Origin: Centroscyllium fabricii
Lineage: Eukaryota
DNA length: 64,000 nucleotides
Direction: 5' to 3'
Assembly: GCA_051313645.2 (NCBI GenBank)
Contig: JBNRSN020000003.1
Location: forward strand, 10,726,001 to 10,790,000
This document shows, piece by piece, positions 820-57,730 of the stretch. Within the stretch, counting starts at the first letter, position 1; every line of letters begins with the position of its first letter. The notes beneath the pieces were generated by a model. It was not told the DNA's origin, did no database searches, and worked only from the letters and a program-made list of their open reading frames with translations. The position numbers and the translations under genes were made by a program.

Positions 820-1571
820 GGGCCACAAATTAGCCGTGGAGCCTTCGTGCGAGTGCAGGGCTCCTAGTTACACTTACCCTGCACTTTTGCCGTTTTGAAA
901 TTCTACGATGTGAACTCCCGAGTTGTACGGCTGCTTCAGGCTCTATGCGAGCTGCTGGTGCAACTCAACGGCGCAATTAGTGCAAGATAGCGCACGAGAC
1001 CACGTGATCGGCAGGGAGCCAATCAATGGAAGCAATCCTCCATTCAAACTTACACAGAGAAATCTGTGTAACTTTTGAAAAGGAAGAGCTTCAAAAACAC
1101 ATCTAAACACAAATATAAAATTTAAAAACACCCAATTTTTTAACAATACTCTAACTAACATAAATTACCTATTTTAAAGAAACAATAAAAATTTAGAATT
1201 TTTTTTTACAGTCTTTAACTGGCCTAAAATAATACATACCTGTCTTTGAAGTTAATTTTTTTTAAAAACCTGTAAAAACACTTAAATTCTATAATACTTA
1301 CCTGCTAAAAATGGGTGGTTACGTCTGATATTTTTAAGTGTATAATCTTCCATACTTACCCCGATAAAAAAGTCAGAAAAAAATGGGAGTCCACTGCGCA
1401 CCTCCTGGTGCGCAGGCGAACGCGATCCATCTCGCAGCAGCTCTCGACCCCCCGCTGGATGCCTTCGGAATGGCAGGGAGCAACCGGAAACGGCTGCTAC
1501 CTGCGATTCGGAGCTTAGGTGCGCTAACACCCGGCTCCAAAACCTCCTGCGCTCATCGGAAGCATTGGCCC
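820..1571. mobile_element. Non-autonomous DNA transposon (PIF/Harbinger-like), copy 1
   Basis: Imperfect GGGCC(A)..ATT termini; about 750 bp similar in inverted orientation to 16334-17088; no coding capacity. Confidence 0.65.
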
Positions 1572-2047
1572 AATAAAAGTTTTTTAAAAAATGTTCAGCC
1601 AGTCGTTTTGCAGCAACTGAAGCAAGTGAGGAATGTGCATCGTCAGCAACAGCAATATCTTTACAACCAGGCCTTGCGGAAGAAAGGAATGCCATTGCCC
1701 GCTGCCCAAGATTGCCTCAGCATCCTTTGGACCACTGGAGAGGGGAAGCTTCTTACACCATGACCCAGTGTAGCATAAAAGGCAAGGATGGACTTGCTCC
1801 CTGTGGGAACCCCACTAGTTAAAGGTGCCCTCTTGCAATGGCTCTTAGTTAAGGCAGTTAAGCCGCACAAACGGGTTTGCTCATGACTGAAACCATACAA
1901 TTTCCATATTGATTCATAAATTATTGGAGGGGTGCTCCTATTCCAATTACTTATGCCGCCAACAGAAATTATTTATGTAGATTTGGAAAAATGCTTTATT
2001 GAACTTTACGTGGCTTAATACTGATTCAGGTTGCTGAAAATCATGTA

Positions 2048-3270
2048 TAGCCACACTATAGGAAGGATGTGATTGCTTTGGAGAGGGTGCAGAGGAGATT
2101 CACCAGGATGTTACCTGGGCCGGAGCGCTTCAGCTATGAAGAAAGACTGGACAGGCTGGGGTTGTTTTCCTTGGAGCAGAGAAGGCTGAGGGGGGGGGGG
2201 GACCTGATTGAGGTGTACAAAATTATGAGGGGCGTAGATAGGAAGGAACTTTTTCCCTCAGTAGAGGGGTCAATAACAAGGGGGCATAGTTTCAAGGTAA
2301 GGGGCGGGAGGTTTAGCGGGGATTTGAGGGAAAACCTTTTTCACCCAGAGGGTGGTTGGAATCTGGAACTCACTGCCTGAAAGGGTGGTAGAGGCAGGAA
2401 CCCTCACAACATTCAAGAAGCATTTGGATGAGCACTTGAAATGCCACAGCATACAAGGCTACGGACATCATGGTACATCAGTCACTGAAGGTGGGAATGC
2501 AAGTGCAGCAGGCGGTCAAGAAAGCAAATGGCATGTTGGCCTTCATAGCAAGGGGATTTGAGTACAGGAGTAGGGAGGTGTTGCTACAGTTGTACAGGGC
2601 CTTGGTGAGGCCACACCTGGAGTATTGTGTGCAGTTTTGGTCTCCTAACTTGAGGAAGGACATTCTTGCTATTGAGAGAGTGCAGCGAAGGTTCACTAGA
2701 TTGATTCCTGGGATGGCCGGACTGACATATCAGGAAAGACTGGATCAACTGAACTTGTATCCTCGAGTTCAGAAGAATGAGGGGGGATCTTATAGAGACG
2801 TTTAAAATCCTGACTGGTTTAGACAAGTTAGATGCGGGCAAAATGTTTCCAATGTTAGGGAAGACTAGAACCAGGGGTCACAGTCTAAGGATAAAGGGGA
2901 GGCCATTTAAGACTGAGATGAGGAGGAACTTCTTCACCCAGAGAGTGGTGAATCTGTGGAATTCTCTGCCACAGAAGGTTGTTGAGGCCAGTTCACTAAA
3001 TATATTCAAAAGGGAGTTAGATATAATACTCACAACTAGGGGGATCAAGGGGTATGGCGAGAAAGCAGGAATGGGGTACTGAGGTAGCATGTTCAGCCAT
3101 GAACGCATTAAATGGCGGTGCAGGCTCGAAGGACCGAATGGTCTACTCCTGCACCTATTTTCTATGTTTCTATGTTTCCATGGACCAAATGCTGGAAAAT
3201 GGGATTAGATGGCCGGCGCGGACGCGATGGGCCGAAGGGCCTCTTTCTGTGCTGTATAACTCTATGACTA
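2048..3270 (+). mobile_element. Two nested 5'-truncated CR1 LINEs (younger copy about 2467-3178 inserted in the 3' end of an older one)
   Basis: ORF2 C-terminal peptides LERVQRRFTRMLPG, RPHLEYCVQFWSP, RTRGHSL, FFTQRVVNLWNSLP; two different 3' tails; host tail resumes at about 3179. Confidence 0.9.
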
Positions 3271-3452
3271 TAAAGAATGTTTCAATTTCAGTAGCCACTG
3301 CTGGATTACGAAGTGCATTTTAGAAATATGTTATACTGTCTAGGAAAATATACCTAAACTCTGGAACACTCTGCAGGTCAGTCAGCATCGGCTCAGAGAA
3401 CAGACAAGTTAATGTTTCAGGTGTAAATCCTTCATCAAAATTGGCTCATTAC

Positions 3453-3569
3453 CTTTCTTTTCTGTCCTGCTGCCCTCGTATTCAAACTTGGTTGCCATGA
3501 CCTCGAACAGAGTTTTAAGGATGCTTCGCAGGTCACTTGCATAGTTAGTTTGCAGCTGATCAGCAACAC
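3453..3569 (-). CDS. ZFYVE28: ZFYVE28/Lst2 internal exon (117 nt, phase 1-1)
   Basis: aacatag|GTGTTGCT...AAGAAAG|gtaatg; encodes (G)[38 protein letters not shown], the conserved Lst2 motif. Confidence 0.96.
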
Positions 3570-4517
3570 CTATGTTTTGAGAGAGAGAGAGGGTGTGTTT
3601 AAAAAAAAAAATTAAAGCAAAAATAACCTTCTGCCCATGGACTCGTAAAATAAAGAACGTGTCCCATCTTGCATCCCCACCAGCCCCCACAACTTCTTCC
3701 TGATCAAATAAAAGTATAGGTTATCTGCCAATTTGTAATTTTCTACCTGTGACATTTGTCACTGATTCCACCAGTGCAATGGATCCATCACGATAACCCT
3801 GTTATTTAAAATGTCACACATGCATTTTTTCGGGAGGGTGGGGGCGGGGGGTGGGGAAGGGTGTGTTGCGATCCAATTTACAATCTAGTCGATACAGCTC
3901 CAAGGAGCAATCCAATGCAGCAGCGGAACATAAATTAAATTTGCGGATCACAAGCTAAACAACAGCTTCAATTTATATAGCACTGCCAACACAGAAAATA
4001 ATGTCCAAGTGTGAGTGCAGGTTTTAGATCAACAGGTTGCTGCCACTGGCCGTATAGCAATATGCAGGGAGAATGAACAGTGGCGTCAAACATAAATCAA
4101 GTTTCTGAAGGTCTGTGGGGAAGAACGTGATGAGAATGCATGCAACACAGTCCTCTCTCCGGCAATAAAAGGTAACATTTTCGATGTTATTCTGGAGTTT
4201 AATAGGATTTCATATTGTTTCTTCTGAAAGATGATGTTAGCTGACCTCCACACATGTCGTGTGAAAGGGAAGGTGGGTGATGGTTTTCCAAACAGATTAC
4301 AAATGGTACAAGAAAGATAACTCTCATCAGGCAGGTTAGGTTGCACAACAAATGCTTTGTGCCCATCGTCTGGTACCCACAACTGCAGGCAGAGGTGAAA
4401 ATATCTTGCTTTGGACGAGGATTAGTCCTTGTGAAGGCTCCGGCAGCTAAAGAAAACGGCAACAGTCGACTCCGGATAGCTTTATGAAAATGTGAGAATG
4501 CCCCACCAACTGCAATA

Positions 4518-5175
4518 CAGGTTGAAGTTCGTTAATCCAGCACGGGCAGGACCAGGCCCGTACTGGACAAGTGAAATCCCGAACGATTGAAGTTTCGGCG
4601 AGCGCATGTGCAGACCATTCAAAATGGCCGCCGCGAAAGGCCGGCGGCCATTTCGAGTGGTCTGTGCATGTGCTGATCGTTCAGGGAGGCTCGGAGAGGC
4701 TCGCAGCGGCCAGGCTCGCAGCGGCCAGGCTCGGGGAGGCTCGCAGCGGGCAGGCTCGCAGCAGCCAGGCTCGGGGAGGCTCGCAGCGGCCAGGCTCGGG
4801 AAAGCTCGCAGCGGCCAGGCTCGGGGAGGCTCGCAGCGGCCAGGCTCGGGGAGGCTCGCAGCGGCCAGGCTCGGGAAAGCTCGCAGCGGCCAGGCTCGGG
4901 GAGGCTCGCAGCGGCCAGGCTCGGGGAGGCTCGCAGCGGCCAGGCTCGGGGAGGCTCGCAGCGGCCAGGCTCGGGGAGGCTCGCAGCGGCCAGGCTCGGG
5001 GAGGCTCGCAGCGGCCAGGCTCGGCCATTGTGAATGATCTGCGCATGTGCAGATCATTCACCGAAGCATCAATCGCGGTGGCCATTTTGCACATGCACAT
5101 GGCAGTCGGGGAAATTATTGCCGGACGTTCGAAGTTGCCGGTTTTTAGGGTGCCAGGTTAACGAACTTCAACCTG
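4518..5175. mobile_element. Tc1/mariner (pogo/Tigger-like) MITE with internal 25-bp tandem array
   Basis: TA|CAGGTTGAAGTTCGTTAA...TTAACGAACTTCAACCTG|TA (TIR plus TA TSD); array of GCTCGCAGCGGCCAGGCTCGGGGAG units at about 4690-5025. Confidence 0.88.
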
Positions 5176-6083
5176 TACAAGATGTTCCCTTGAAAACACC
5201 ACAATCACAGCATATCCTGCTTTCAGTAGCAGTGCATGAAAGGCGGCCATCTAACCAACCCTGACTGATGAGTTGCAGCCATACCCACAAAGATGCCAAT
5301 CATTTCTATGGACCCTGGCAATGACTGTGGGAACTGTTTTCTCGAGGTTTAGGCAGTAGGCTATCCCATCGGCTGCAAGAATCCGGAGCACAGAGCTGGC
5401 ACATGCGATGATGGGAATAGCTGACGCTTAGCTCCACCTTTTCCTCAGCAATCTGCAAGGCTGTCTGTTGGGAATAGTCCCCTCGAGTATCAGAGGGCAA
5501 TCCTCCTCAGGCAGCAACAGCTCCACTTCAACAGGCAAAGAGGGAATTGAGTGCTGGGCTGCTCAGTCACACACTGCAGACTCTTCTATTTCTGCACACC
5601 TCCTCTTGGAGCTCGGCTCCTTCAGCTTTGGCAATGGCTGCTGGGTTGAAATGCCTTCTGAGGCTCTCCAAGAGCACTCGGAATTTTGGCCTCCTATTGT
5701 GGCACCAACCTTTAATTATTCCCAGCCCTTATATTTCACTTGTATGCGATTCTTCACTGCCATTCGCCCGCTCTTTATATCTGTCCGAACCCACATCTGA
5801 AGTTACACTAATGAGCGGATCTAGGAAAATAGGGAGTAAACAGCCCATTTCCATGTAAACTTCTCCAAAATCTGCCAATTGCTATTCTTGCAGTAGTTAC
5901 ACCCAAAACAAAGAAAATCTAGACTACAGGGTTCAATTTGGTTGTTGGAGGTCAATCATCTTAGCCCCGGGATATCGCTGCAGGAGTTCCTCAGGGCAGT
6001 GTCCTAGGCCCAACCATCTTCAGCTGCTTCATCAATGACCTTCCCTCCGTCATAAGGTCAGAAGTGGGGATGTTCGCTGATGA

Positions 6084-7418
6084 GTCATAGAGTTTTACAG
6101 CACAGAAAGAGGCCCTTCGGCCCATTGCGTCCGTGCCGGCCATCAAGCCCTGTCTATTCTAAAATGATAGCAAAATACTGCGGATAGGGTGGGATATGTG
6201 TCGGTGCAGGCTCGAGAGGGATCGAGGGATATGGGGAGAAGGCAGGGACAGGGTGCTGAGTTTGGATGATCAGCCATGATTTCATTGAATGGCGGAGCAG
6301 GCTCGAAGGGCCGAATGGCCGACTCCTATCTTCTATGTTTCTATGTTTACTGCGGATGCTGGAAATCTGAAATAACAACAGAAAACGCTGGAGAAACTCA
6401 GCAGGCCAGGCAGCATCGGTGGAGAGAGGAGCAGAGTTGACGTTTCAGGTCGATGACCTTTTTTCAAAACTGGAGAGGCCAGGAGGGGAGCTAAATTTTA
6501 AAGCATTTGGTCCATAACCTTGTATGCTATGGCATTTCAAGTGCTCATCCAAATGCTTCTTGTTGTGAGGGTTCCTGCCTCTGCAACCCTTTCAGGCAGT
6601 GAGTTCCAGATCCCAACTACCCTCTAGGTGAAAAAGTTCTTCCTCAAATCCCCTCTAAACCTCCTGCCCCTGACCTTGAATCTATGCCCCCTGGTTACTG
6701 ACCCCTCTACTAAGGGGAAAAGTTCCTTTCTATGTACCCTATCTACGCCCCTCATAACTTTCACGTCCTCCCCACTCAGCCTTCTCTGCTCCAAGGAAAA
6801 CAACCCCAGCCTGTCCAGTCTTTCTTCGTAGCTGAAGCGCTCCAGCCCAGGTAACATCCTGGTGAATCTCCTCTGCACCCTCTCCAAAGCAATCACATCC
6901 TTCCTATAGTGTGGCGACCAGAACTGCACACAGTACTCCAGCTGTGGCCTTACCATCGTTTTGTACAGCTCCATCATAACCTCCCTGCTCTTATATTCTA
7001 TGCCTCAGCTAAAGGCGGGAAGTATCCCATATGCCGTTTTACCCACCTTATCTACCTGTCCTGCTGCCTTCAGGGATCTATGTACATGCACACCAAGGTC
7101 CCTCTGAACCTCCGTCTTTCCTCGGGTCTTACCATTCATTGTGTATTCCCTTGCCTTGTGAGTCCTTCCTTCCAAAATGCATCACCTCACACCTTTCAAG
7201 GTTAAATTCCATTTGCCACTGCTCCGCCCATCTGACCAACCCATCTATATCGTCCTGCAGACTGAGGCTTCCCTCTTCGCTATTTACCACTCCACCAATT
7301 TTCGTGTCATCAGCGAACTTACTGATCATACCTTTTACATTCATATCCAAATCATTAATGTAGACTACAAACAGCAAGGGACCCAGCACTGATCCCTGCG
7401 GTACCCTGCTGGACACAG
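6084..7418 (-). mobile_element. CR1 LINE fragment containing a nested Penelope pLTR and a SINE 3' piece (about 6165-6505)
   Basis: [31 protein letters not shown] on minus strand; TACTGCGGA duplication flanks the nested SINE piece. Confidence 0.88.
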
Positions 7419-20016: not shown

Positions 20017-20648
20017 CAGGTTGAGCACCGGTAATCCGGCACCCGATGGTCCGGCACCTTCAGTGGTTCGGCACGAATTGAAACCGGTGGTCTGCAGTTT
20101 GCGGAGCAGCCGCTCGACGGCGCCACCGTTTCCCGCAAAGGGTGGGCGAGCACTGAAGGTGTCGGGTGTTTGGGTTGCTGCTTTTTTAGGTCCTGCAAGT
20201 GTTCTATCCCCGGGCTCCCTCCCGGGGAGTGTTCTATCCCCGGGCTCCCTCCCGGGGAGTGTTCTGCCCGCGCGCTCCGGGCCCCGGGGAGTGTTCTATC
20301 CCATGGCTCCCTCCCGGGGAGTGCTCTGCCCGCACGCTCCGGAACCCGGGGAGTGTTCTGCCCGCGCGCTCCGGAACCCGGGGAGTGTTCTGCCTGCGCG
20401 TTCTGGGCCCCGGGGCGTGCTCTGCCCGCGCGCTCCGGGCCCTGGGGAGTGTTCTGCCCGCGCGCTCCGGGCCCCGGGGAGTGTTCTGCCTGTGCGCTCC
20501 GGGCCCCGGGGAGTGTTCTGCCCGTGCGCTCCGGGCCCCGGGGAGTGTTCTGCCTGCACGCTCCCCCCAAACCTTCAGTGGTTCGGAATTTTCAATGGTC
20601 CAGCACCGGCCTGGTCCCGAGGGTGCCCGATTACTGGTGCTCAACCTG
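20017..20648. mobile_element. Tc1/mariner-type MITE with internal about 32-bp GC-rich tandem array
   Basis: TA|CAGGTTGAGCACCGGTAATC...GATTACTGGTGCTCAACCTG|TG; unit CCCCGGGGAGTGTTCTGCCCGCGCGCTCCGGG at about 20200-20565. Confidence 0.85.
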
Positions 20649-23500: not shown

Positions 23501-24729
23501 TGACTGAAATTACTCACTGGGAGCGCCCCGAGAATGCATCTGTAACCCAGATATTTTAGTTCGTTTATCAGAAATTCATAGAAACATAGAAGATAGGAGC
23601 AGGAGTCAGCCATTCAGCCCCTCCTGATCACTGATCAGAGCACATCACTGTGAGCTGGTCAATTTTACAGCAAGAAAGGCAGATTTTGGGTTGGGTGCAG
23701 AAAAGTAAAGTAACTGGCAAAAGAGGGAAGATGTTTTTTTTTTTATTTTTTAAACACAGCAAGTTGTTATGCTCTGGAGTTAATACTGTACCTGAAAGGA
23801 TGGTCGAAGCAGATTCAAAAGTAACTTTCAAAAGGTAATTGAATAAAATCTTGAAGGGGAAAAATGGCCTCCTTCAGTGCTGTATCATTCTACGATTCTA
23901 TGAAAATACAGAAGCTCAATGCCAATAGAAAGATGAATATTAAGACCTAATTCCACTTGTTGGTATTAACTCAGAACTACAAAGCGTGATCAGGTGCAGT
24001 TCAGCAACAGGAACTGGGCTAACATGGCGAGTTCGCAACTTCCACAGGGGCAAGGGCCCAATCCAAGTCCGCGATATTGACCCCGAGCTTCTGGTCACTT
24101 GTTGTTTTAGTTCTCCGCCCCACTCCCACCTCTGTGTCCTCGGCTTCCTGCACTGTTCCAATGAAGTGGAGGTGCCGGTATTGGACTGGGGTGGACAAAT
24201 GCATTAAGTCACACAGCACCAGGTTATAGTCCAACAATTTTATTTGAAATCACAAGCTTTCGGAGCGCTGCTCCTTCCTCAGGTGTAAGAGAAATTCATC
24301 TAAACACAGCATATATACACGAGAGAGCAGTGTAATCTTTCCAACATCACACCTCATACGTTACAGGAAAGGATGCCCTCCGGAGCATGGTACATCAGCG
24401 AGACCATGCAGACACTACGACAACGGATGAACAGACACCGCACAACAATCGCCAGGCAGGAGTGTTCCCTCCCAGTCGGGGAACACTTCAGCAATCAAGG
24501 GCATTCAGCCTCCGATCTTCGGGTAAGCATTCTCCAAGGTGGCCTTCGAGACACACGACAACGCAAAATCGTCGAGCAGAGGCTGATAGCCAAGTTCCGC
24601 ACTCATGAGCACGGTCTCAACCGTGATATTTGCTTCATGTCGCGCTACATGTAACCCCACCTGACGTAGAGTCAGCCAGACTCGAGTCGTCTTTGGCTTG
24701 TTCTCACTACACAAATGTTGCTGCGATCT

Positions 24730-25018
24730 TGTGGTAACCCTTTTATGTCTGTTCTACCACTGTATCATTATGGCTAATAATGGGCTGTGCAGATGTTAGG
24801 CACAGCCCTGTATACTGTGACACTGTTGGGAGCCAGGTCAGCCACACCTCCAACTCCTCCCCCAGGTGAGGCCCGTTATAGGTGAGATCTGACCGAGGCT
24901 CCTTCATTCCTGTACTGAAGTTCGTTCCGGAGGTTAGCTCCATTCTTAGCAATTAAAAGCCTTTAGTTTCGGTAACTACTCGTCGACTCTTTTAATCGAA
25001 GGTATTGACGATACGTCA
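24730..25018 (+). repeat. 5' LTR
   Basis: Matches 29169-29457 except two adjacent substitutions by eye; ATTAAA poly(A) signal at 24952-24957. Confidence 0.97.
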
Positions 25019-25043
25019 ATTTTAATTGCTAACTATTTTTAAA

Positions 25044-26351
25044 ATGGAGAGCAGCGCAGTTAAACCTGAGAAGTTGGACATCAGTCCCCAGGACCCTGCC
25101 GCTGCCGCCACGTACGAACACTGGTTCGGCCTCCTGGAGGCCTACATGGACGCCGCCAAGGCTACAACGGACAGGAACAAGCTGCATGTCCTACGATCGA
25201 GGATCTCCAGCAGGGTATTCACCCTCATCAGGAACGCCTCATCATACGTATCGGCTGTACGAATTCTGAAAAAATGTTACGAGCGCCCGGTCCATTCGGT
25301 CTACGCCCGACATGTGCTTGCGACCAGATCTCAGCTACCGGGTGAGTCCAATGAGCAGTTCGAGCAAGCGCTCCTGGCCCTGGTACGGGTCTGTGGCTGC
25401 AAAGGCACTACAGCTGAAGAGGAGGCAGAACTCCTCGTTCGGGACGCCTACGTTACAGGACTGAGGTGTGTGGAAGCCCGCCAGCGGCTACTAGAGAAAG
25501 ACGATTTAACCCTCGAGGAGGCGACTAAGATAGCCAAATCAGTAGAGGGGGCCCGAAGCAAGTTACAGGCGTACAGCGGCACTAACCCGCAAGCCTACAA
25601 CATATGGGCCGCGCCACAACAGGCCCAGGCCTGGGCGCAACGGGCCGAGGCCCCCACGATGGCCGCGACGGCCACTAAAGACAAGCGCTGCTACTTCTGC
25701 AGCCAGGGACTGCACCCAAGAGCGAAATGCCCAGCCAGGACAGCAACCTGCGAGAAATGTGCGAAGAAGGGACACTACACTAAGGCCTGCAGATCAGCTC
25801 CAGCAGCGCCCAACTCAAGGTACAACAGTGCAGCCTGTGAGAGCACCGACAGACACCAGGTAAGCTGCAATAGCAGCGCGATCCAGCGACGGTACGGGGG
25901 TAGACAACAAGCGCCCCCATCCCGATGCGGCAAAGGCCGGCCAAGCGCGACCCCCCAACGCGGCCGGCTGCGTGCGAATCACGGGCACCGCCAACCCGAC
26001 CAGCGCGGCCCGCTGCGTGCGAATCACGGGCACTGCCAACCCGATCACCGCGGTCCGCTGCGTGCGAATCACGGGCGCCGCCAGCGCGTCCACAGTGCCC
26101 CACCATGTGCGTCCCCTCGGAAACGCCATTTTGTACTCAGGGCCCCTCCATGTGCGAGCCAGGGGCGACGCCATCTTGTATCCAGGGCCCCTCCATGTGC
26201 GAGCCAGGGGCGCCGCCATCTTGTATCCAGGGCCCCACCATGTGCGAGCCAGGGGCGCCGCCATCTTGTGCGCAGCCCCGATCAGCAGGGGCTGCGGCAA
26301 CCAGAATCAGAGTTAGCCAGGGCAGGCCCCATACCCTGTCTAACTCCATAA
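25044..26351 (+). pseudogene. Gypsy gag
   Basis: ATG at 25044 (MESSAVKPEKL); RSQLPGES..F...L motif, RDAYVTGL, knuckles CYFCSQGLHPRAKC and CEKCAKKGHYTKAC. Confidence 0.9.
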
Positions 26352-29110
26352 TGCCGATTAACATTAATAACTACACTGTCGACTGCCTTTTCGACACAGG
26401 CAGCACTGAGAGTTTCGTTCACCCCGATACAGTGCGGCGCTGCGGACTGCAGGTCCTGCCCACTAACTACCAAGTCTCCCTAGCTTCACAGTCCCACACA
26501 GCGGACGTCACCGGCTACTGCTCCATCACGCTCACCGTCAAGGGGCGCGTGTACCGTAATTTTAAATTGAATATCCTCCAACAGTTGTGTGCCCCAGCCT
26601 TACTAGGTTTGGATTTCCAGTGCCACTTCAGGAGTGTGACAATGGAGTTCGGCGGGACCTTACCCCCCCTCACCGTCAGTAGCCAGGACAATCTCCCCCC
26701 AAAGCGGAGCCCGGCCTGCGGCCTCTCCACCCTGAAAATCGACCCCCCCTCGCTGTTCGCCAACCTCGATCCGAAGTGCAAACCCATTGCCACTAAGAGT
26801 CGGCGGTACAGTGAGGGGGATCGCACGTTCATCAGGTCGGAGGTCGGGCGGATGCTGAAGGAGGGGATAATTGAAGCCAGCACCAGCCCCTGGCGTGCCC
26901 AAGTTGTAGTGGTGAAGTCTGGCGAAAAACAGCGGCTGGTTATCGATTACAGCCAGACTATCAACCACTACACCGGGCTCGACGCCTACCCCCTTCCCCG
27001 CATCTCGGAAATGGTCAATCAGATCGCCCAGTACAAGGTGTTTTCTACGATCGACCTTAAATTGGCGTTATCACCAACTCCCGATTCGGAAAGCCGACCG
27101 CCCCTACACCGCCTTCGAGGTGAACGGTCGGCTCTACCACTTCCTCCGGGTCCCCTTTGGCGTGACCAACGGGGTGTCAGTGTTCCAACGAGAGATGGAC
27201 CGTATGGTTGACCAAAACGACTTGCAGGCCACTTTCCCTTACCTGGACAACGTGACCATCTGCGGCCACGACCAGCAGGACCACGATGCCAATCTGGCCA
27301 AATTTCTTGCCACGGCGGACAAGCTGGACCTTACGTATAACAAGGACAAATGTGTCTTTAATACAGCCCGGCTCGCCATCCTCGGATACGTGGTGGAGAA
27401 CAGGCTCCTCGGCCCCGACCCACAGCGTATGCGACCCCTGCAAGAACTGCCCCTACCTCACAACCCCAAAGCCTTGAGGAGATGTCTAGGATTTTTCTCC
27501 TATTATGCACAATGGGTCCCACAGTTCGCAGATAAGGCTAGACCACTCCTGAAGGCTGCCGTCTTCCCCCTTTCTGTAGAAGCCCAAACGGCATTCGCAA
27601 GGATAAAGGAAGATATTATCAAGGCGACCATGCTCGCTGTTGATGAATCCATCCCTTTCCAGGTGGGGAGCGACGCTTCGGACTTTGCCCTTGCTGCCAC
27701 CCTGAATCAGGCAGGCAGGCCCGTAGCGTTTTTCTCCCGCACCTTACAGGGACCCGAAACTCGCCACTCTGCAGTGGAAAAGGAGGCCCAGGCCATCGTG
27801 GAGGCCGTGCGCTACTGGCGTCATTACCTGGCCGGTAAGCGTTTTACCCTGCTCACCGACCAACGGTCGGTCGCGTTTATGTTTAACAATAAACTACGGG
27901 GTAAAATCAAGAATGATAAGATCCTGCGGTGGCGGATCGAACTCTCGACTTACTAGTACGGCATTCTTTACCGCCCAGGCAAACTCAACGAACCCCCGGA
28001 CGCACTGTCCAGGGGAACGTGCGCCAGTGCCCAGCTAGACCGGCTGAAGGACCTCCACGACCGCCTTTGCCACCCGGGTGTCACTAGACTCGCCCACTTC
28101 GTCAAATCCCGTAGCCTCCCCTACTCCATCACGGAGATCAAGGCTATGACCCGAGAGTGCCCTGTCTGCGCCGAGTGCAAACCCCACTTTTTCCGGCCAG
28201 ACACGGCGCACCTCATTAAGGCCACCCGCCCCTTTGAACGTCTCAGCGTGGACTTCAAAGGCCCCCTCCCATCCACCGACCGCAACTCATACTTCCTCAC
28301 GGTAGTGGATGAGTTCTCCCGCTTCCCCTTCGCCTTTCCCTGCCCAGACATGACGAGCGCAACGGTGATCAAACACTTCACCACGCTGTTTGCCATCTTC
28401 GGTCTCCCCAGCTACATCCATAGCGACCGGGGGGGGTCATCGTTCATGAGCGATGAACTGCGCCAGTTTCTGCTGCAGAGAGGGGTTGCCACGAGCAGAA
28501 CGACCAGTTATAACCCCCGGGGGAACGGCCAGGTAGAAAGGGAGAATGGGATCATTTGGAAGGCGGTCACCCTGGCTCTGAAGTCCAGAGGCCTTCCAGT
28601 GGCCCATTGGCAGGCAGTCCTCCCAGACACGCTGCACTCTATACGCTCTCTATTATGTACTGCCACCCCGCACGATCTGATTTTCTCTTTCAACAGGAGG
28701 TCGACTTCGGGGACAGCTCTTCCTCCATGGCTGACGACTCCGGGGCCGGTTTTGCTTAGAAGGCATGTCCGGAGCCACAAGATGGACCTCCTGGTGGACA
28801 AGGTACAGCTCCTACACGCAAACCCGCACTACGCCTTTGTGCAGTTCCCGGACGGGCGTGAGGACACCGTGTCCATCAGGGACCTGGCTCCCGCAGGAAG
28901 CACCAACGCAGAGCCCCCGGCCGGCCAGCAGGCCGATCAACCACCAGACACACGATGGCCCCTGAGTTTCCCCGACTACGACCCGGACCAACCGAGCCCA
29001 CCGCCACCCGAAGCCACTGTGCCGGCAGACGCGGGCGATTCGACCCAGGAGGCACCACCACCAGAGCGCCGGCGATCCTCCAGGCAGACACGACCACCGG
29101 ACAGACTTAT
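26317..29110 (+). pseudogene. Gypsy pol (protease, RT, RNase H, integrase), disrupted
   Basis: LFDTGS; DAYPLPRI, PFGVTNG, YLDN; SDAS, EKEA, TDQRS; HDRLCH..CPVC, VDFKG, HSDRG, VERENG; +1 frameshift at about 27068 and in-frame TAG at 27954. Confidence 0.93.
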
Positions 29111-29168
29111 TGTGAACTGTTCGACCCATTCACCCCCCCCGGACTCAAAGTTTTTAAGAAGGGGTGAA

Positions 29169-29457
29169 TGTGGTAACCCTTTTATGTCTGTTCTACCACT
29201 GTATCATTATGGCTAATAATGGGCTGTGCAGATGTTAGGCACAGCCCTGTATACTGTGACACTGTTGGGAGCCAGGTCAGCCACACCTCCAACTCCTCCC
29301 CCAGGTGAGGCCCGTTATAGGTGAGATCTGACCGAGGCTCCTTCATTCCTGTACTGAAGTTCGTTCCGGAGCGTAGCTCCATTCTTAGCAATTAAAAGCC
29401 TTTAGTTTCGGTAACTACTCGTCGACTCTTTTAATCGAAGGTATTGACGATACGTCA
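29169..29457 (+). repeat. 3' LTR
   Basis: Direct repeat of 24730-25018. Confidence 0.97.
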
Positions 29458-29709
29458 GATCTCCAGTAAGGAAAATCTTTTTTTTTTTTTTTTTTTTTAA
29501 ACATTCGGTGGGTTTTCACACGGACACCAGACTGCAACATTTGACCCTTTGTGACTGCACCTCATTGATCTCAGACTGGTGCCTGATTAATATGTTAAAA
29601 TATGTTAAAACACCTTTGTTCGCTTTGTATGTCTCTCTGCTGAGGTATGATATTGGAAAGATTACACTGCTCTCTCTCGGATATGCTGTGTTTAGATGAA
29701 TTTCTGTTA

Positions 29710-29744
29710 CACCTGATGAAGGAGCAGCGCTCCGAAAGCTTGTG
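29710..29744 (+). ncRNA. Minimal hammerhead ribozyme-like motif in Penelope family A pLTR
   Basis: CAC-CTGATGA-A-GGAGC-AGC-GCTCC-GAAA-GCTT-GTG: conserved core, 5-bp stem II, palindromic AAGCTT in place of stem III; activity not demonstrated. Confidence 0.7.
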
Positions 29745-30123
29745 ATTTCAAATAAAACTGTTGGACTATAACCTGGTGTTGAGACTTCTTTCATTTGTTC
29801 CAATGAAGCTTGAGGAACAGCACCTCATCGTTTGATTAGGCACTTGACAACCGTCCGGACTCAATGAGTTGAACAATTTCAGATCATAAGCACTGCTCCC
29901 ATTGTTTTCGGACAGCAGGTACTGGGAATGGTTCTGCGGTTGCCATTTATAGTTCCTCTAGACCCATCTTTAATTTCTTTACTTGTCCCATTACCACCCC
30001 CTTTTTGCCTCGCACCATCATCCCTTGTGCCAGTTAATCACTCCAGCCTTCCACTCCATCACACACCTTCCCTTTTGTTCTTTCTTTTCTTCCCAGCTTT
30101 TCCTGGCTCTGCACTTGCTTAAA

Positions 30124-32683: not shown

Positions 32684-34149
32684 CAGTGTTGGCCGTGAGC
32701 GCGCTAAATGAGCGCGCGTTCACGAGCGCGTTCACATTTTCGTGAACGCGGAACGAGCGCGCTCTTTCCCAGCAGCCTGAGCGAAAACATGAGCGTCGCT
32801 CGTTTTGGAGGGAGTGAGCGGCGCTCTTCACGAGTCTGAATCGCTGCTGCCTGGGTCGGCGTCTCCAAGCCATCGGGACGGTAAGTGTCTCTGTCTGCAC
32901 TGAGTGCTGCGGGGCAAAATCTCTCTCTCTCTCTGCACTGAGTGCTGCGGGGCAAAATCTCTCTCTCTCTGCACTGAGTGTTGCGGGGCAAAATCTCTCT
33001 CTCTCTCTCTGCACTGAGTGCTGCGGGGCAAAATCTCTCTCTCTCTCTGCACTGACTGCTCTGCGGGGCAAAATCTCTCTCTCTCTCTCTGCACTGACTG
33101 CTCTGCGGGGCAAAATCTCTCTCTCTCTGCACTGACTGCTCTGCGGGGCAAAATCTCTCTCTCTCTCTCTGCACTGACTGCTCTGCGGGGCAAAATCTCT
33201 CTCTCTCTGCACTGACTGCTCTGCGGGGCAAAATCTCTCTCTCTCTGCACTGACTGCTCTGCGGGGCAAAATCTCTCTCTCTCTGCACTGACTGCTCTGC
33301 GGGGCAAAATCTCTCTCTCTCTCTCTGCACTGACTGCTCTGCGGGGCAAAATCTCTCTCTCTCTCTCTCTCTGCACTGACTGCTCTGCGGGGCAAAATCT
33401 CTCTCTTTCTCTCTCTGCACTGGGTGCTCTGCGGGGCAAAATCTCTCTCTCTCTCTCCTTTTTAGAAAGATAGGAGCAGGAGTAGGCCATTCAGCCCTTC
33501 AAGCCTGCTCCACCATTCAATGAGATCATGGCTGATCATCCAAACCCTGTAACCCGCCCCTGCCCTCTCCCCATATCCCTCACCAACACATATCCCACCC
33601 TATTCCCATATATTCAATCTCCCTAACACTAAGGGTAAATTTATCCTGGCCAATCAACCTAACCCTGCACAATCAACCTAACCCTGCACAATCAACCTAA
33701 CCCTGCACATCTTTGGACTGTGGGAGGAAACCGGAGCACCCGGAGGAAACCCACGCAGACACGGGGAGAATGTGCAAACTCCACACAGATAGTACCCAAG
33801 GCTGGATTTGAACCCGGGTCTCCAGTGCTGTGAGACAGCAGTGCTAAGCACTGTGCCACCGTGCCGCCCTATATACTCAGCCTGTGTATATGCATACAGA
33901 CAGTTCTCTATATCGGATATTTGTTCCTCCTGCTTCATAATTTGCATTGAGGATGTTCTATTGAAAAATAATAGCTCGGGGCAGCGCATTAGAAGAAAAG
34001 AAAAAAAAAAACGAACTTTGAACTAGTTCATTTTTGAGCTGCGAACTTAAGTTCAAAATTCAGAACTATGAACTTGAACTAGTTCATTTTAAAATGATTG
34101 AACTGAACTTTGAGCTAGCTCTTGTTAAGTGTGAACTTTCCCAACACTG
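32684..34149. mobile_element. Non-autonomous hAT element, composite (minisatellite plus HE1 SINE at about 33463-33869), copy 1
   Basis: CAGTGTTGG...CCAACACTG TIRs; 8-bp TSD ATGGCAGC (32676-32683 and 34150-34157); subterminal GAGCGC and GAACT/AGTTC repeats. Confidence 0.93.
32895..33457. repeat. Minisatellite GCACTGA(C/G)TGC(TC)TGCGGGGCAAAA(TC)n, about 14 units
   Basis: Direct reading; unit length varies with the embedded TC microsatellite. Confidence 0.95.
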
Positions 34150-42947: not shown

Positions 42948-45800
42948 TAGATGATAGGAGCAGGAGTAGGCCATTCGGCCCTTCGAGCCTGCTCCGCCAT
43001 TCAATGAGATCATGGCTGATCCTTCAGTTCAGTATCCCGTCCCTGCCTTCTCTCCGTAACCTTTAACCCCTTTTGCCTGCAGAAATATATCTAATTCCCT
43101 CTTAAATATGTTTAATGAGCTGGCGTCCACTGCCCTCTGTGGCAGTGAGTTCCACAGGTTCACCACTCTCTGGGTGAAGAAATTCCTCCTCATCTCTGTC
43201 CTAAATGGTTTAGCCCTTATCCTTAAACTGTGTCCCCTAGTTCTATACTCTCCTGCCATCGGAAACATTCCTTCTGCATCTAGTCTGTCCAGGCCTGTCA
43301 GAATTTTATATGTTTCTATGAGATCCCCTCTCAATCTTCTAAACTCCAGTGTGTACATCCCCAAACTACATAGTCTCTCCTCATAGGTCATTCCTGCCAT
43401 TCCTGGTATCAGCCTGGTGAATCGCCGCTGCACTCCTTCCATGGCAAGAACATCCTTCCTCAGATGAGGCGACCAAAACTGCACACAGTACTCGAGGTGT
43501 GGTCTCACCAGTGCCCTGTACAGCTGTAGTAAGGTGTCCTTGTTCCTGTATTCTAACCCTTTTGATATGAAGGCCAGCATACCATTTGCCTTCCTGACCG
43601 CCTGTTGCACCTGCATGCTCGCCTTCAATGACTGGTGCACAAGAACACCCAGGTCTCGCTGTACTTCCCCATCTCCCAATCTATTGCCATTTAAATAATA
43701 ATTTGCCCTCCCGTTTTTGCCCCCAAGGTGGATAACTTCACACTTATCCACATTATAGTGCATTTGCCATGTATCTGCCCAGTCCCCCAATTTGTCCAAA
43801 TCGCTTTGGAGCTTCCTGATCCCCTCCTCTGAGCCTACCCCCCCTCCTAGTTTAGTGTCGTCTGCGAATTTGGAGATGCTGCATCCGATTCCCTGATCTA
43901 GGTCATTAATATAAATTGTGAACAGCTGGGGACCCAGAACAGATCCCTGAGGTACCCCACTTGTTACTGCCTGCCATTCAGAAAATGAGCCGTTTATTCC
44001 AACTCTCTGTTTTCTATCTGCCAGCCAGTTCTCTATCCACGTCAATACTTTTCCCCTTATCCCATGCGCCTTGATTTTACATGCTAATCTTTTATGTGGG
44101 ACCTTATCGAAGGCTTTTTGGAAGTCCAGGTACACCACATCTACTGGCTCTCCCCCATCTATTTTACCAGTTACTTCCTCAAAGAATTCCAACAGATTCG
44201 TCAAGCACGATTTACCTTTTGTAAATCCATGTTGACTCTGTCCTATCCTGTCCCCATTTGCCAAGTGCTCTGCTATTACATCCTTAATGATGGACTCCAA
44301 CATTTTGCCCACCACCGATGTAAGGCTTACAGGTCTGTAATTACCCGCTTTCTCCCTACCCCCCTTTTTAAATAGTGGGGTAACGTCAGCTACCCTCCAA
44401 TCCATGGGCACTGTTCCCGAGTCTATCGAATTCTGGAAAATTATCCTTAACGCCTCTGCTATCTCTAGGGCCACCTCCTTGAGTACCCTAGGATGCATGT
44501 TATCAGGCCCTGGGGATTTGTCAGCCTTTAGTCCCTTTAGCTTCCCCAACACCATATCCTTAGAGATATTGATTTTTGTCAGTTCCTCCCTTGCAATTGT
44601 CCCTATGGTTCCCGATATCTCAGGGAGGTTTTTTGTGTCTTCCTTTGTGAAGACAGACCCAAAATATGCATTTAATTGGTCTGCCATTTCCTTATTTCCC
44701 ATTATATATTCCCCAGAATCTGACCGTAATGGACCGACTTTGGATTTCACCAGTCTTTTCCTCTTAATATACTTGTAAAAGCTTTTGGAGTTAGTTTTTA
44801 TGTTTGCCGCCAGCTTACTTTCGTACGCTATTTTTCCCCTCCTGATTAATCCCTTTGCCCTCCTTTGTTGTATCCTAAACTGTTCCCAATCTTCAGGTCT
44901 GGTGCTTTTTTTTGGCTATTTTATATGCTCTTTCTTTGGATTTTATGCTGTCCCTAATTTCCCCTGTTATCCACGGTTGAGTCACCTTTTTAGATTTCTT
45001 TTTATGCCAGATTGGTATAAACAATTTCTGCAATTCTGCCATTCTGTCTTTAAATGCTTGCCATTGTTTATCCACCGCCAGTCCCCCCAGAAACGCTGCC
45101 CAATCAGACTTACTTAATTCCCGTCTCATGGCATCATAATTCCCCTTATTTAAATTCAGGACCTTAGTCTCTGAGTCAGTTTCTTCGCTCTCCATTGCGA
45201 GTGAGAATTCGATCATGTTATGATCGCTCTGACCCAAGGGTCCCCGTACAACAAGATTACTAATTAGTCCCTTCTCATTGCACAGTACCCAGTCCAAGAT
45301 AGCCTGATCCCGAGTTGCTTCCTCGACATATTGAACCGCGGCAGCAAGGCCCAAGGCGCAGCCCGACCGCATTTGGATGAGCACTTGAGATGTCATAGCA
45401 TACAAGGCTACGGACCAAGTGCTGGAAAATGGGATTAGAATAGAAAGGGCTTGATGGCCGGCGCGGACATGATGGGCCGAAGGGTCTCTTTCTGTGCTGT
45501 AAAGCTCTATGGGCGAGTTTCCCACCCAGAATGTTGATGCCCCTTCGGTTCAGGTGCAAGCCGTCCCGGTCATACAGATCCCACCTTCCCCAGAACGATC
45601 CCCAATTGTCCACGAAACTCATGCCCTCCCTTCTGCACCAATCCTGTAGCCACGCGTTTATTCTCATTCTTTTTTTGTTTTTCCACTCCCTATCCCGTGG
45701 CACTGGTAGGATCCCAGAAATCGTGGCATTATTCGTTTTGTCTCTCAGTTTCCTTCCTAGTTCCTTAAATTCCTGCCTTATGTCTTCCTCCTTTTTCCTC
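42948..45800 (-). mobile_element. Young CR1 LINE: uninterrupted 573-aa RT/C-terminal ORF2 segment (43029-44750), partial EN region and ORF1 esterase remnant
   Basis: [56 protein letters not shown]; ORF1 NAWL..WC...G..F...W...DGLHLN at 45510-45703. Confidence 0.95.
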
Positions 45801-55783: not shown

Positions 55784-57730
55784 CATAGAAGATAGGAGCA
55801 GGAGTCGGCCATTCGGCCCCTCGAGCCTGCTCCGCCATTCAGTGAGATCATGGCTGATCATCCAAACCCAGTATCCTGTCCCTGCCCTCTCCCCATATCC
55901 CTTGATCCCTCTAGCCTTACGAAATACATCCAGCTCCTTCTTGAATATATTCAATGAACTAGCCTCCACCGCCCTCTGTGGCAGAGAGTTCCACAGGTTC
56001 ACCACTCTCTGGGTGAAGAAATCCCTCCTCATCTCTGTCCTAAATGAGTTACCCCTTATCCTTGGACTATGACCCCTGGTTCTGGACTCTCCGATCATCG
56101 GGAACATTCTTCCTGCATCAAGTTTGTCCAGACCAGTTCGAATTTTATACGTTTCGATGAGATCCCCCCTGAATCTTCTAAACTCCAGAGAGTACAAACC
56201 CAGTCTACCCAGTCTCTCCTCATACGTCATTCCTGCCATCCCAGGTATCAGCCTGGTGAATCTTCTCTGCATTCCCTCCATGGCAAGAACGTCCTTCCTT
56301 AGATAAGGAGACCAAAATTGCACACAGTACTCAAGGTGTGGTCTCACCAAGGCCCTGTACAACTGCAGCAAGACCTCCCTGTTCCTGTACTCAAACCCTT
56401 TCGCTATGAAGGCCAACATACCATTTGCCTTCTTAACCGCCTGCTGCACCTGCATGCTCACCTTCAGTGACTGGTGCACAAGGACACCCAGGTCTCATTG
56501 TACTTCCCCTTCTCCCAATCTATTGCCATTCAGATAATAGTAGGCATTTCTGTTTTTGCCCCCAAAGTGGATAACCTCGCATTTATCCACATTATACTGC
56601 ATCTGCCACGTCTCAGCCCACTCGCCCAACCTGTCCAAATCATCCTGGGGCTTCCTGGTATCCTCCTCGAAGCACACACGCCCTCTCAGCTTTGTGTCAT
56701 CTGCAAACTTGGAGACATTACATTTAGTTCCCTTTTCTAAATCATTAATGTATATTGTAAATAGCTGGGGTCCCAGGACCGATCCCTGCGGTACCCCACT
56801 AGTCACTGCCTGCCACTCGGAAAAAGACCCATTTACTCCTACTCTCTGCTTTCTGTCTGCCAACCAATTCTCAATCCAAGTCAATACCTTGCCCCCAATC
56901 CCATGTGCCCTAACTTTACATGCTAATCTCTTGTGCGGGACCTTGTCGAACACCTTTTGAAAGTCTAAGTACACCACATCTACTGGTTCTCCCTGATCAA
57001 TTTTCCCAGTTACATCTTCAAAAAATTCCAGTAGATTAGTCAAGCACGATTTACCTTTTGTAAATCCATGTTGACTTTGTCCGATCCTGCCACTGATTTT
57101 CAAGTGCTCAGCTATTACATCCTTTATTATGGACTCCAGCATCTTCCCCACTACTGATGTCAGGCTTACTGGTCTGTAATTTCCCGCTTTCTCCCGACCA
57201 CCCTTTTTGAATAGTGGGGTGACATTAGCCACCCTCCAATCCATGGGTACAATTCCAGATTCCATCGATTGCTGGAAGATAATCAGTAATGCATCCACTA
57301 TTTCTAGGGCCACTTCCTTAAGTACCCTAGGATGTAGATTATCAGGCCCTGGGGATTTATCGGCCTTTAATCCCATCAATTTCCCTCACACCATTTCCCT
57401 GCAAATACGGATTTCTTTCAGTTCCTCCCTTTCATCAAACCTTATGTTCCCCAATATCTCTGGGAGATTACTTGTTTCCTCCTTTGTGAAGACAGAATCA
57501 AAATATGCATTTAATTAGTCTGCCATTTCTTTGTTCCCCATCATCACTTCCCCTGCTTCTGACTGTAAGGGACCTACACTTGATTTCACTAATCTTTTTC
57601 TCTTCACATATCTATAAAAGCTCCTTGAGTCAGTTTTTATATTCCCTGCAAGTTTACTTTCATATTCTATTTTCCCCTTCTTAATTAATCCCATTGTCCT
57701 CCTTTGTTGAATCCTAAACTGTTCCCAATC
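55784..57730 (-). mobile_element. CR1 LINE, RT-containing 3' 1.9 kb
   Basis: ORFs 56495-57379 and 55706-56479 with all RT motifs, few lesions. Confidence 0.94.

Follow-up and report, generated by a model that had tools for sequence, protein, structure and literature searches.

Probable self-priming from its own LTR in a Gypsy lineage outside the Tf1/sushi group, seen from an element of Centroscyllium fabricii

How reverse transcription is primed in an LTR retrotransposon without a tRNA primer site is the question raised by a Gypsy element of Centroscyllium fabricii. The element lies in a window of 64,000 nucleotides (assembly GCA_051313645.2, contig JBNRSN020000003.1, positions 10,726,001 to 10,790,000 of the forward strand), in which all positions below are given. 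A preliminary description had pointed out that the 5' LTR is not followed by the TGG with which a tRNA primer-binding site starts, and that the leader is exactly antisense, over 13 nt, to a part of the LTR covering ATTAAA. Both statements are confirmed in the window copy: 25020-25032 (TTTTAATTGCTAA) is the exact reverse complement of 24946-24958, this is the longest exact match between leader and LTR, and the ATTAAA at 24952-24957 is the sole AATAAA or ATTAAA hexamer in the LTR. From the sequence comparisons described below, it is very probable that the element would be primed in the manner of Tf1, by a 53-nt piece of its own 5' RNA cut at 24958/24959.

The window element is a Ty3/Gypsy LTR retrotransposon, with TG..CA LTRs, a target site duplication (TSD), a polypurine tract and the order PR-RT-RH-IN (Table 1). 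Pfam finds protease, RT, RNase H and integrase in Gypsy order in this copy, and gag has two CX2CX4HX4C knuckles (~25689-25790). The two LTRs are identical at 287 of 289 positions (2 differences over 289 bp), and the coding region is broken by a frame change in a repeat tract near 25900-26200, another near 27057-27082, and a stop at 27954-27956. Between gag and protease there are six degenerate 45-nt tandem units (25972-26286), the length of which differs among copies. The family is young and abundant in the 7.2-Gb host genome, where each of the 150 gag matches that were scored is 95-100% identical. The named gag homologues are, nearest first, from rays and a shark, then from nematodes and crustaceans.

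Table 1. Features of the Gypsy element and of its predicted priming region (window coordinates)
Feature	Position	Strand	Remark
Gypsy element	24730-29457	+	young copy, coding region broken
TSD left, GATCT	24725..24729		sequence
5' LTR, 289 bp, TG...CA	24730..25018	+	
3' LTR	29169..29457	+	
TSD right, GATCT	29458..29462		matches left TSD
Polypurine tract AAGAAGGGGTGAA	29156..29168	+	directly before 3' LTR
gag-pol: two zinc knuckles, protease, RT (YLDN), RNase H, integrase	25044..29168	+	
TATA-like TTATAGG	24876..24882	+	30 nt upstream of predicted start; putative function, from sequence
Predicted transcription start, A of TCATTC (predicted primer 5' end)	24906	+	reverse copies end here
Predicted 53-nt self-primer RNA	24906..24958	+	putative
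13-nt LTR stretch pairing with primer site	24946..24958	+	ATTAAA at 24952-24957; predicted cut 24958/24959
Possible stacked stem GCCTTT (24959-24964) / GAAGGT (24998-25003)	24959..25003	+	outside this copy's minimum-energy fold
7-bp hairpin across LTR end	25004..25020	+	competes with other stems; weakly conserved
Spacer A (1 nt), then 13-nt primer-binding site	25019..25032	+	

The element is inserted inside what is probably a Penelope-like repeat (24300-24660 and 29700-29780), with inverted terminal-like sequence at both flanks; a frame at ~24390-24655 resembles the end of a GIY-YIG endonuclease. Elsewhere in the window there are minisatellite-like arrays (20198-20596 and 32882-33452; periods of 30-32 nt and 36-46 nt) and, on the minus strand, two more RT-coding frames (43029-44915 and 56495-57385), which are probably LINEs.

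The match between leader and LTR may be followed in copies and relatives of the element. In the 30 closest copies 13 nt or more are kept in 27, while two have one mismatch and one is without that part of the LTR; an accident of one copy is ruled out by these figures. Related loci were taken from other families of the host genome and from 80 metagenome-contig loci (the best 80 of 193 confirmed). Fifteen of 170 loci were left out: 2 lacked an ATG where one was expected, 8 had less than 100 nt upstream and 5 had no gag start. In 112 of the remaining 155 loci the longest exact stem that the leader can form with upstream sequence is at least 12 nt, as against 1 of 104 dinucleotide shuffles, by which a chance match is likewise ruled out.

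The pairing also keeps a fixed register. For this count 8 loci were added to the 155, and an exact stem of at least 11 nt that starts one base after a CA is found in 112 of the 163; among the other 51 loci, 11/13 is reached with mismatches by 32, of which one looks spurious by eye, while 19 remain below 11/13, several because the LTR is cut or missing. The preliminary description had looked to covariation among related elements, and the complementarity is indeed kept across families, own-LTR pairing that starts one base after the LTR-terminal CA being present in 143 of the 163 related loci. That the LTR ends at the CA was judged by eye (45 two-LTR elements examined, 32 with an LTR pair next to gag), and TSDs of 5 bp flank at least ten two-LTR elements.

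The 112 exact-stem loci fall into 27 distinct 11-nt primer ends, or about two dozen families. These 27 primer groups were chosen for pairing, and their own pairing is present by construction; the cross test is free of that choice, and in it a leader reaches 11 nt with a foreign LTR in none of 702 combinations. Every one of positions 5-11 of the helix shows all four pair types among the groups. The self-pairing primer site is a real, lineage-wide feature.

Next to the helix, the triplet that follows the paired stretch is GCC, ACC or GCT in 24 of the 27 groups, and a stacked stem of at least 4 bp is possible in 21 of 27 (21% of shuffles), although it is absent from the minimum-energy fold of the window copy. 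Two structural claims of the preliminary description stand in part. Its second hairpin, at 25004-25020, is present in the sequence with 7 bp, but it shares base 25020 with the 13-mer, lies outside the minimum-energy fold, and has a counterpart at the U5 end in only 7 of 27 primer groups versus 12% in shuffles. Its statement that the 13-bp pairing can form only at the 5' LTR is correct for the local fold and is limited to it, because the 3' LTR carries the same 13-mer, and the 3' LTR copy in full-length RNA or cDNA can pair too.

Some loci show variants of this region. Two family-2 copies (L038, L045) combine an LTR and a primer site of different subtypes, as expected from strand transfer between two RNAs. 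In a family-4 subgroup (L366, L375, L376) the primer site is extended to 18 nt by LTR-complementary bases, after which the normal leader follows. In viral contigs, no relative was found.

Half-tRNA priming is known in Copia lineages (PMC6317226, in its accessible text), and a host tRNA, a tRNA half or another small RNA might have been the primer here, with the LTR match incidental. However, TGG near the LTR end is found in 0 of 112 leaders, and the 27 different sites each follow their own LTR. The two tRNA genes in the fetched loci match the sites over 6 nt at best, and a search of Rfam gave no match above threshold, only a weak one to a miRNA model far below it. We give this explanation almost no credence.

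To place the lineage, outgroups were fetched from the same genome by Pfam families; their labels sushi-like, CsRn1-like and Mag-like are presumed from the fetching Pfam family and from RT motifs. RT-RNase H rows numbered 71, less 22 near-duplicate or partial ones, and a quick, unrooted tree was made of the remaining 49. All 36 rows of the lineage fall on a single branch (SH-aLRT 100), to which none of the 7 sushi-like, 4 Mag-like and 2 CsRn1-like rows belongs. The lineage is joined to the Mag-like rows at SH-aLRT 92 and may be sister to them, in a tree that is unrooted, carries a long-branch warning and holds only 4 Mag-like rows from one genome. Judged by its RT, the lineage belongs with none of the sushi-, Mag- and CsRn1-like elements, and sushi membership is ruled out by the separate RT branch. 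The preliminary description had called the double knuckles Mag-like: the two CX2CX4HX4C knuckles are there, but the tree places the element outside the Mag-like rows. Its statement that a chromodomain is missing agrees with Pfam, in which neither Chromo nor SH3_Tf2-1 matches the window copy or two long-frame relatives, a search that had no positive control, as the frame of the sushi-like control ends before the region. The RT catalytic motif is YLDN in the window copy (27241-27252); in 51 lineage rows it is YxDN in 33 and Y/FxDD in 9, and 9 are without a match to the search pattern.

The control elements of the same genome bear on the meaning of the register. CsRn1-like and Mag-like elements have TGG sites, and their best stems are 5-8 nt. 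The sushi-like control L199 has an 11-nt self match one base after the CA, in the same register as the lineage, and three other sushi-like elements have self matches of 7-9 nt. From these controls, the register of the lineage is taken to be that of a primer site. One element of the lineage, on the reverse strand of L198 at about 1365-6195, is itself nested in a sushi-like element.

The 5' end of the predicted primer may be read from reverse copies, in which LTR end and primer site are followed by continued reverse complement of the LTR. With this arrangement as the search pattern and its reversal as the control, 94 loci were found for family 1 and 0 for the control, and all 94 were fetched. 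In 47 of the 94 the copy ends within 2 nt of 24906 (31 exactly); the others stop 3-37 nt before that point (19), go 9-27 nt past it (3) or reach the LTR start (25). By eye, the start-site class is joined to about 15 different acceptors. About 30 of its 47 loci share one gag acceptor with 7 nt of microhomology, so that locus counts overstate the number of events; when events are counted instead (by eye), 15 of 34 fall in 5 of 211 positions (P about 5 × 10-16). At the shared acceptor, where several LTR subtypes occur, the copy mostly retains one base beyond the microhomology, and longer microhomologies (8-9 nt) further upstream are left unused.

Start predictions for the other families were fixed before the results; that of family 1 was picked from the sequence and not recorded before the search. 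In family 2, 9 of 21 reverse copies end at -1 to +2 of the family's own TCAGT start, with 5 acceptors by eye, and the rest run through (7), end in between (2) or end short (3). Two observations stand against the preferred reading of Tf1-like self-priming: in family 4, where 30 of the 32 loci found were fetched, 0 of 30 end at the predicted start (27 reach the LTR start and 3 are short), and in family 3 the number is 0 of 2, both loci running on. Run-through copies continue into the polypurine tract and 3' internal region in 3 family-1 and 8 family-4 cases.

When 21 start-site loci were checked over their full length, two LTRs and a perfect TSD were present in 15; of the rest, 4 are without a 3' LTR in the fetched stretch, 1 is without a 5' start and 1 is a tandem. 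The reverse-copy loci with two LTRs and perfect TSDs are therefore integrated products of reverse transcription. An assembly artefact as the source of the aberrant junctions is argued against by the TSDs only. A further explanation is that the reverse copies are a chromosomal product of the 13-bp inverted repeat, made there by end-joining or a template switch, and are uninformative on priming. Inverted repeats do promote such events in chromosomes, and the copies match their own adjacent LTR: subfamily markers are discordant in 1 of 47 start-site copies, a result uninformative as to a separate donor molecule. This origin is nevertheless very unlikely, considering the intact TSDs and the sharp edge at a position defined by TATA and Inr in two families that differ in sequence there; LTR-only insertions without the primer site, described below, still carry the junction of primer to DNA. 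Even if it were true, the covariation and the register would still stand.

Among the remaining unusual loci, L219, L233, L309, L311, L315, L316, L330 and L336 are integrated palindrome-like pieces of ~520 bp, consisting of an LTR and a reverse LTR with two U3 ends and a 5-bp TSD. L242-L268 are 27 head-to-tail LTR junctions with spacers of 1-25 nt, which are remnants of the polypurine tract or unrelated and are uninformative on the primer.

The predicted cut may be located by another class of loci. When the other strand is read, many loci of family 4 are LTR-only insertions, with a perfect TSD in 14 of 15 tested. In five of these the LTR goes as far as the end of the paired stretch, where a T and the U5 end in reverse follow (together 11-38 nt). 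LTR sequence is then taken up again, in four cases from the base just past the paired stretch and in one case from the base before that, and 1-2 nt are shared at the join. The same point of resumption is seen in five family-2 loci, there with microhomology of up to 5 nt; in family 1 one locus ends exactly at the predicted cut and two within 4 nt. The first junction of the family-4 insertions has the look of a primer joined to new DNA, and the second would be the end expected of complete strong-stop DNA if the RNA were cut there; a template jump between finished and aborted strong-stop DNA would yield such insertions. Other LTR-only insertions (L359, L363, L365, L377, L380, L381) stop at a CATCA within the reversed U5, which seems to have served as the end for integration, and their TSDs are perfect.

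Both classes bear on whether the primer might be some other piece of the element's RNA, such as the R copy at the 3' end of the genomic RNA or a short transcript of an LTR annealing in trans, in which case the start-site class would stem from plus-strand DNA that had paired with another RNA molecule at its 5' end. The copies that reach the LTR start (25 of 94 in family 1, 27 of 30 in family 4), the 3 and 8 run-throughs, respectively, that enter the polypurine tract and 3' internal region, and the lack of a start-site class in family 4 would all fit such a primer. Run-throughs, however, would be expected under self-priming by the 5' piece as well, through fold-back or homology transfer, and in the family-4 LTR-only insertions the sequence is taken up again at the base that follows the paired stretch, as if the template itself had been cut. 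A primer of this other kind is considered improbable. The covariation, the fixed register and the aberrant insertions with reverse primer copies support the first of the interpretations in the preliminary description, namely tRNA-independent self-priming in a different Gypsy lineage.

The preferred mechanism may be set out in steps. Transcription would start at 24906, and in the RNA 24946-24958 would pair with 25020-25032, often with the second stem stacked on the helix; the complementarity is a property of the sequence, and the RNA structure is a prediction. The RNA would then be cut at 24958/24959, by analogy with Tf1 by the RNase H of the element, and the freed 3' end would start minus-strand DNA at 25019 and copy U5 back to the cut. 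The 10-30 nt from the cut to the poly(A) site would serve the first strand transfer. Plus-strand synthesis would later copy the primer end and so regenerate the site, and, when it ran on to the primer 5' end, might give rise to the reverse copies in the genome. A point against the scheme is that a 53-nt primer with only 13 paired bases requires an early stop of the plus strand or removal of a flap.

The poly(A) signal lies at the primer end in most of the lineage: a canonical AATAAA or ATTAAA is present in 21 of the 27 primers, a variant in 2 and none in 4 (L159 re-read by eye). In the groups of L101 and L149 a canonical signal lies just downstream of the helix, in the stacked hairpin. Poly(A) cleavage typically takes place 10-30 nt after the signal. 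A bias of the signal toward the 3' end of the primer would be explained by priming alone, since the poly(A) site would then lie 10-30 nt after the cut and leave the overlap that would serve strand transfer.

The preliminary description had offered, as its other interpretation, a switch that hides the 5' poly(A) signal. In the predicted folds the hexamer is unpaired with a probability of ≤ 0.09 at the 5' end and 0.83-0.88 at the 3' end, and the leader fold has a z-score of -1.84. Because the hexamer is predicted to be paired in the 5' fold and open in the 3' fold, hiding of the 5' signal is plausible as a second role beside priming. That the helix solely hides the signal, with something else acting as primer, draws on the same fold and on the 21 of 27 primers with a canonical signal, and we consider it most unlikely: 4 of the 27 primers are without a signal and 2 have a variant, the canonical signal is downstream of the helix in L101 and L149, and masking does not need the fixed register one base after the CA, supplies no primer and leaves the reverse copies unexplained. 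Poly(A)-tailed R ends were found at none of 381 sites in 405 loci.

In the literature no report was found of self-priming in an animal Gypsy lineage other than chromoviruses; most subscription papers were outside the search. Some Repbase entry notes reportedly mention self-priming for animal Gypsy elements, which could lower the novelty. It is suggested only tentatively that an animal-wide Gypsy lineage outside the chromoviruses evolved self-priming independently, with a long capped primer ending in the poly(A) signal, with one helix that hides the 5' signal, sets the freeing cut and leaves just enough R, and with failed copies that map both primer ends.

Self-priming has so far been described for chromoviruses and predicted for one Copia lineage. 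Its presence, with a different geometry, in a large lineage of sharks, rays, crustaceans, nematodes and metagenome hosts would mean that tRNA-independent priming arose or persisted more than once. This would bear on whether hairpin priming preceded tRNA priming, a question raised in the accessible part of PMC3601003. Such elements would escape silencing aimed at tRNA primer sites, and LTR finders that require a tRNA site would miss them. The approach by genome fossils also yields exact coordinates that can be tested, the start at 24906 and the cut at 24958/24959.

The known systems may be compared from the accessible parts of the papers. Tf1 and sushi are chromoviruses whose self-primer is the RNA 5' end, in a structure of three duplexes (bioRxiv 10.1101/2022.12.06.519325), and the primer is kept in about 50% of Tf1 cDNA (PMC11042837). 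Besides Tf1/sushi, self-priming has been predicted from LTR complementarity for Tcn1 (plant) and for the Copia TAR elements Houba and Osr-1 (PMC6317226); what is known is also treated in PMC4600332, PMC8220671 and PMC2774666. The same kind of prediction is made here, and TAR is a precedent outside chromoviruses; TAR and Tcn1 differ in being plant elements of another superfamily or clade, and the parts available contain no mapping of primer length. Among animal elements, the Mag lineage (A/B/C clades, SURL) shares two CCHC knuckles, the lack of a chromodomain and a 5-bp TSD, whereas the Mag-like elements of this genome have a TGG site and a branch of their own. The Cigr-1 clade, an animal non-chromovirus Gypsy group listed for tunicates, molluscs and annelids (PMC6238403, PMC8556966, as far as accessible), has a compatible host range and is a candidate for the clade of this lineage; these texts are silent on its primer.

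In all likelihood the lineage works like Tf1 self-priming. As in Tf1, the primer site stands beside the LTR-terminal CA and is complementary to LTR RNA of the element itself, and the primer appears to be copied into the 3' end of the plus strand; a further stem may adjoin the primer helix (21 of 27 groups versus 21% of shuffles, and not in the fold of the window copy). Unlike Tf1/sushi, the lineage is without a chromodomain and has an RT branch of its own. The RNA of Tf1-type elements pairs by its extreme 5' end, which is the primer, whereas here the paired stretch would lie ~40 nt inside a primer of 53-54 nt, as counted from the predicted start; in two families the reverse copies end that far upstream of the paired stretch. 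Also unlike Tf1, the poly(A) signal is in most cases the last part of the paired stretch. The lineage is outside the Tf1/sushi group, and is distinct by the predicted long primer and the tie to the poly(A) signal.
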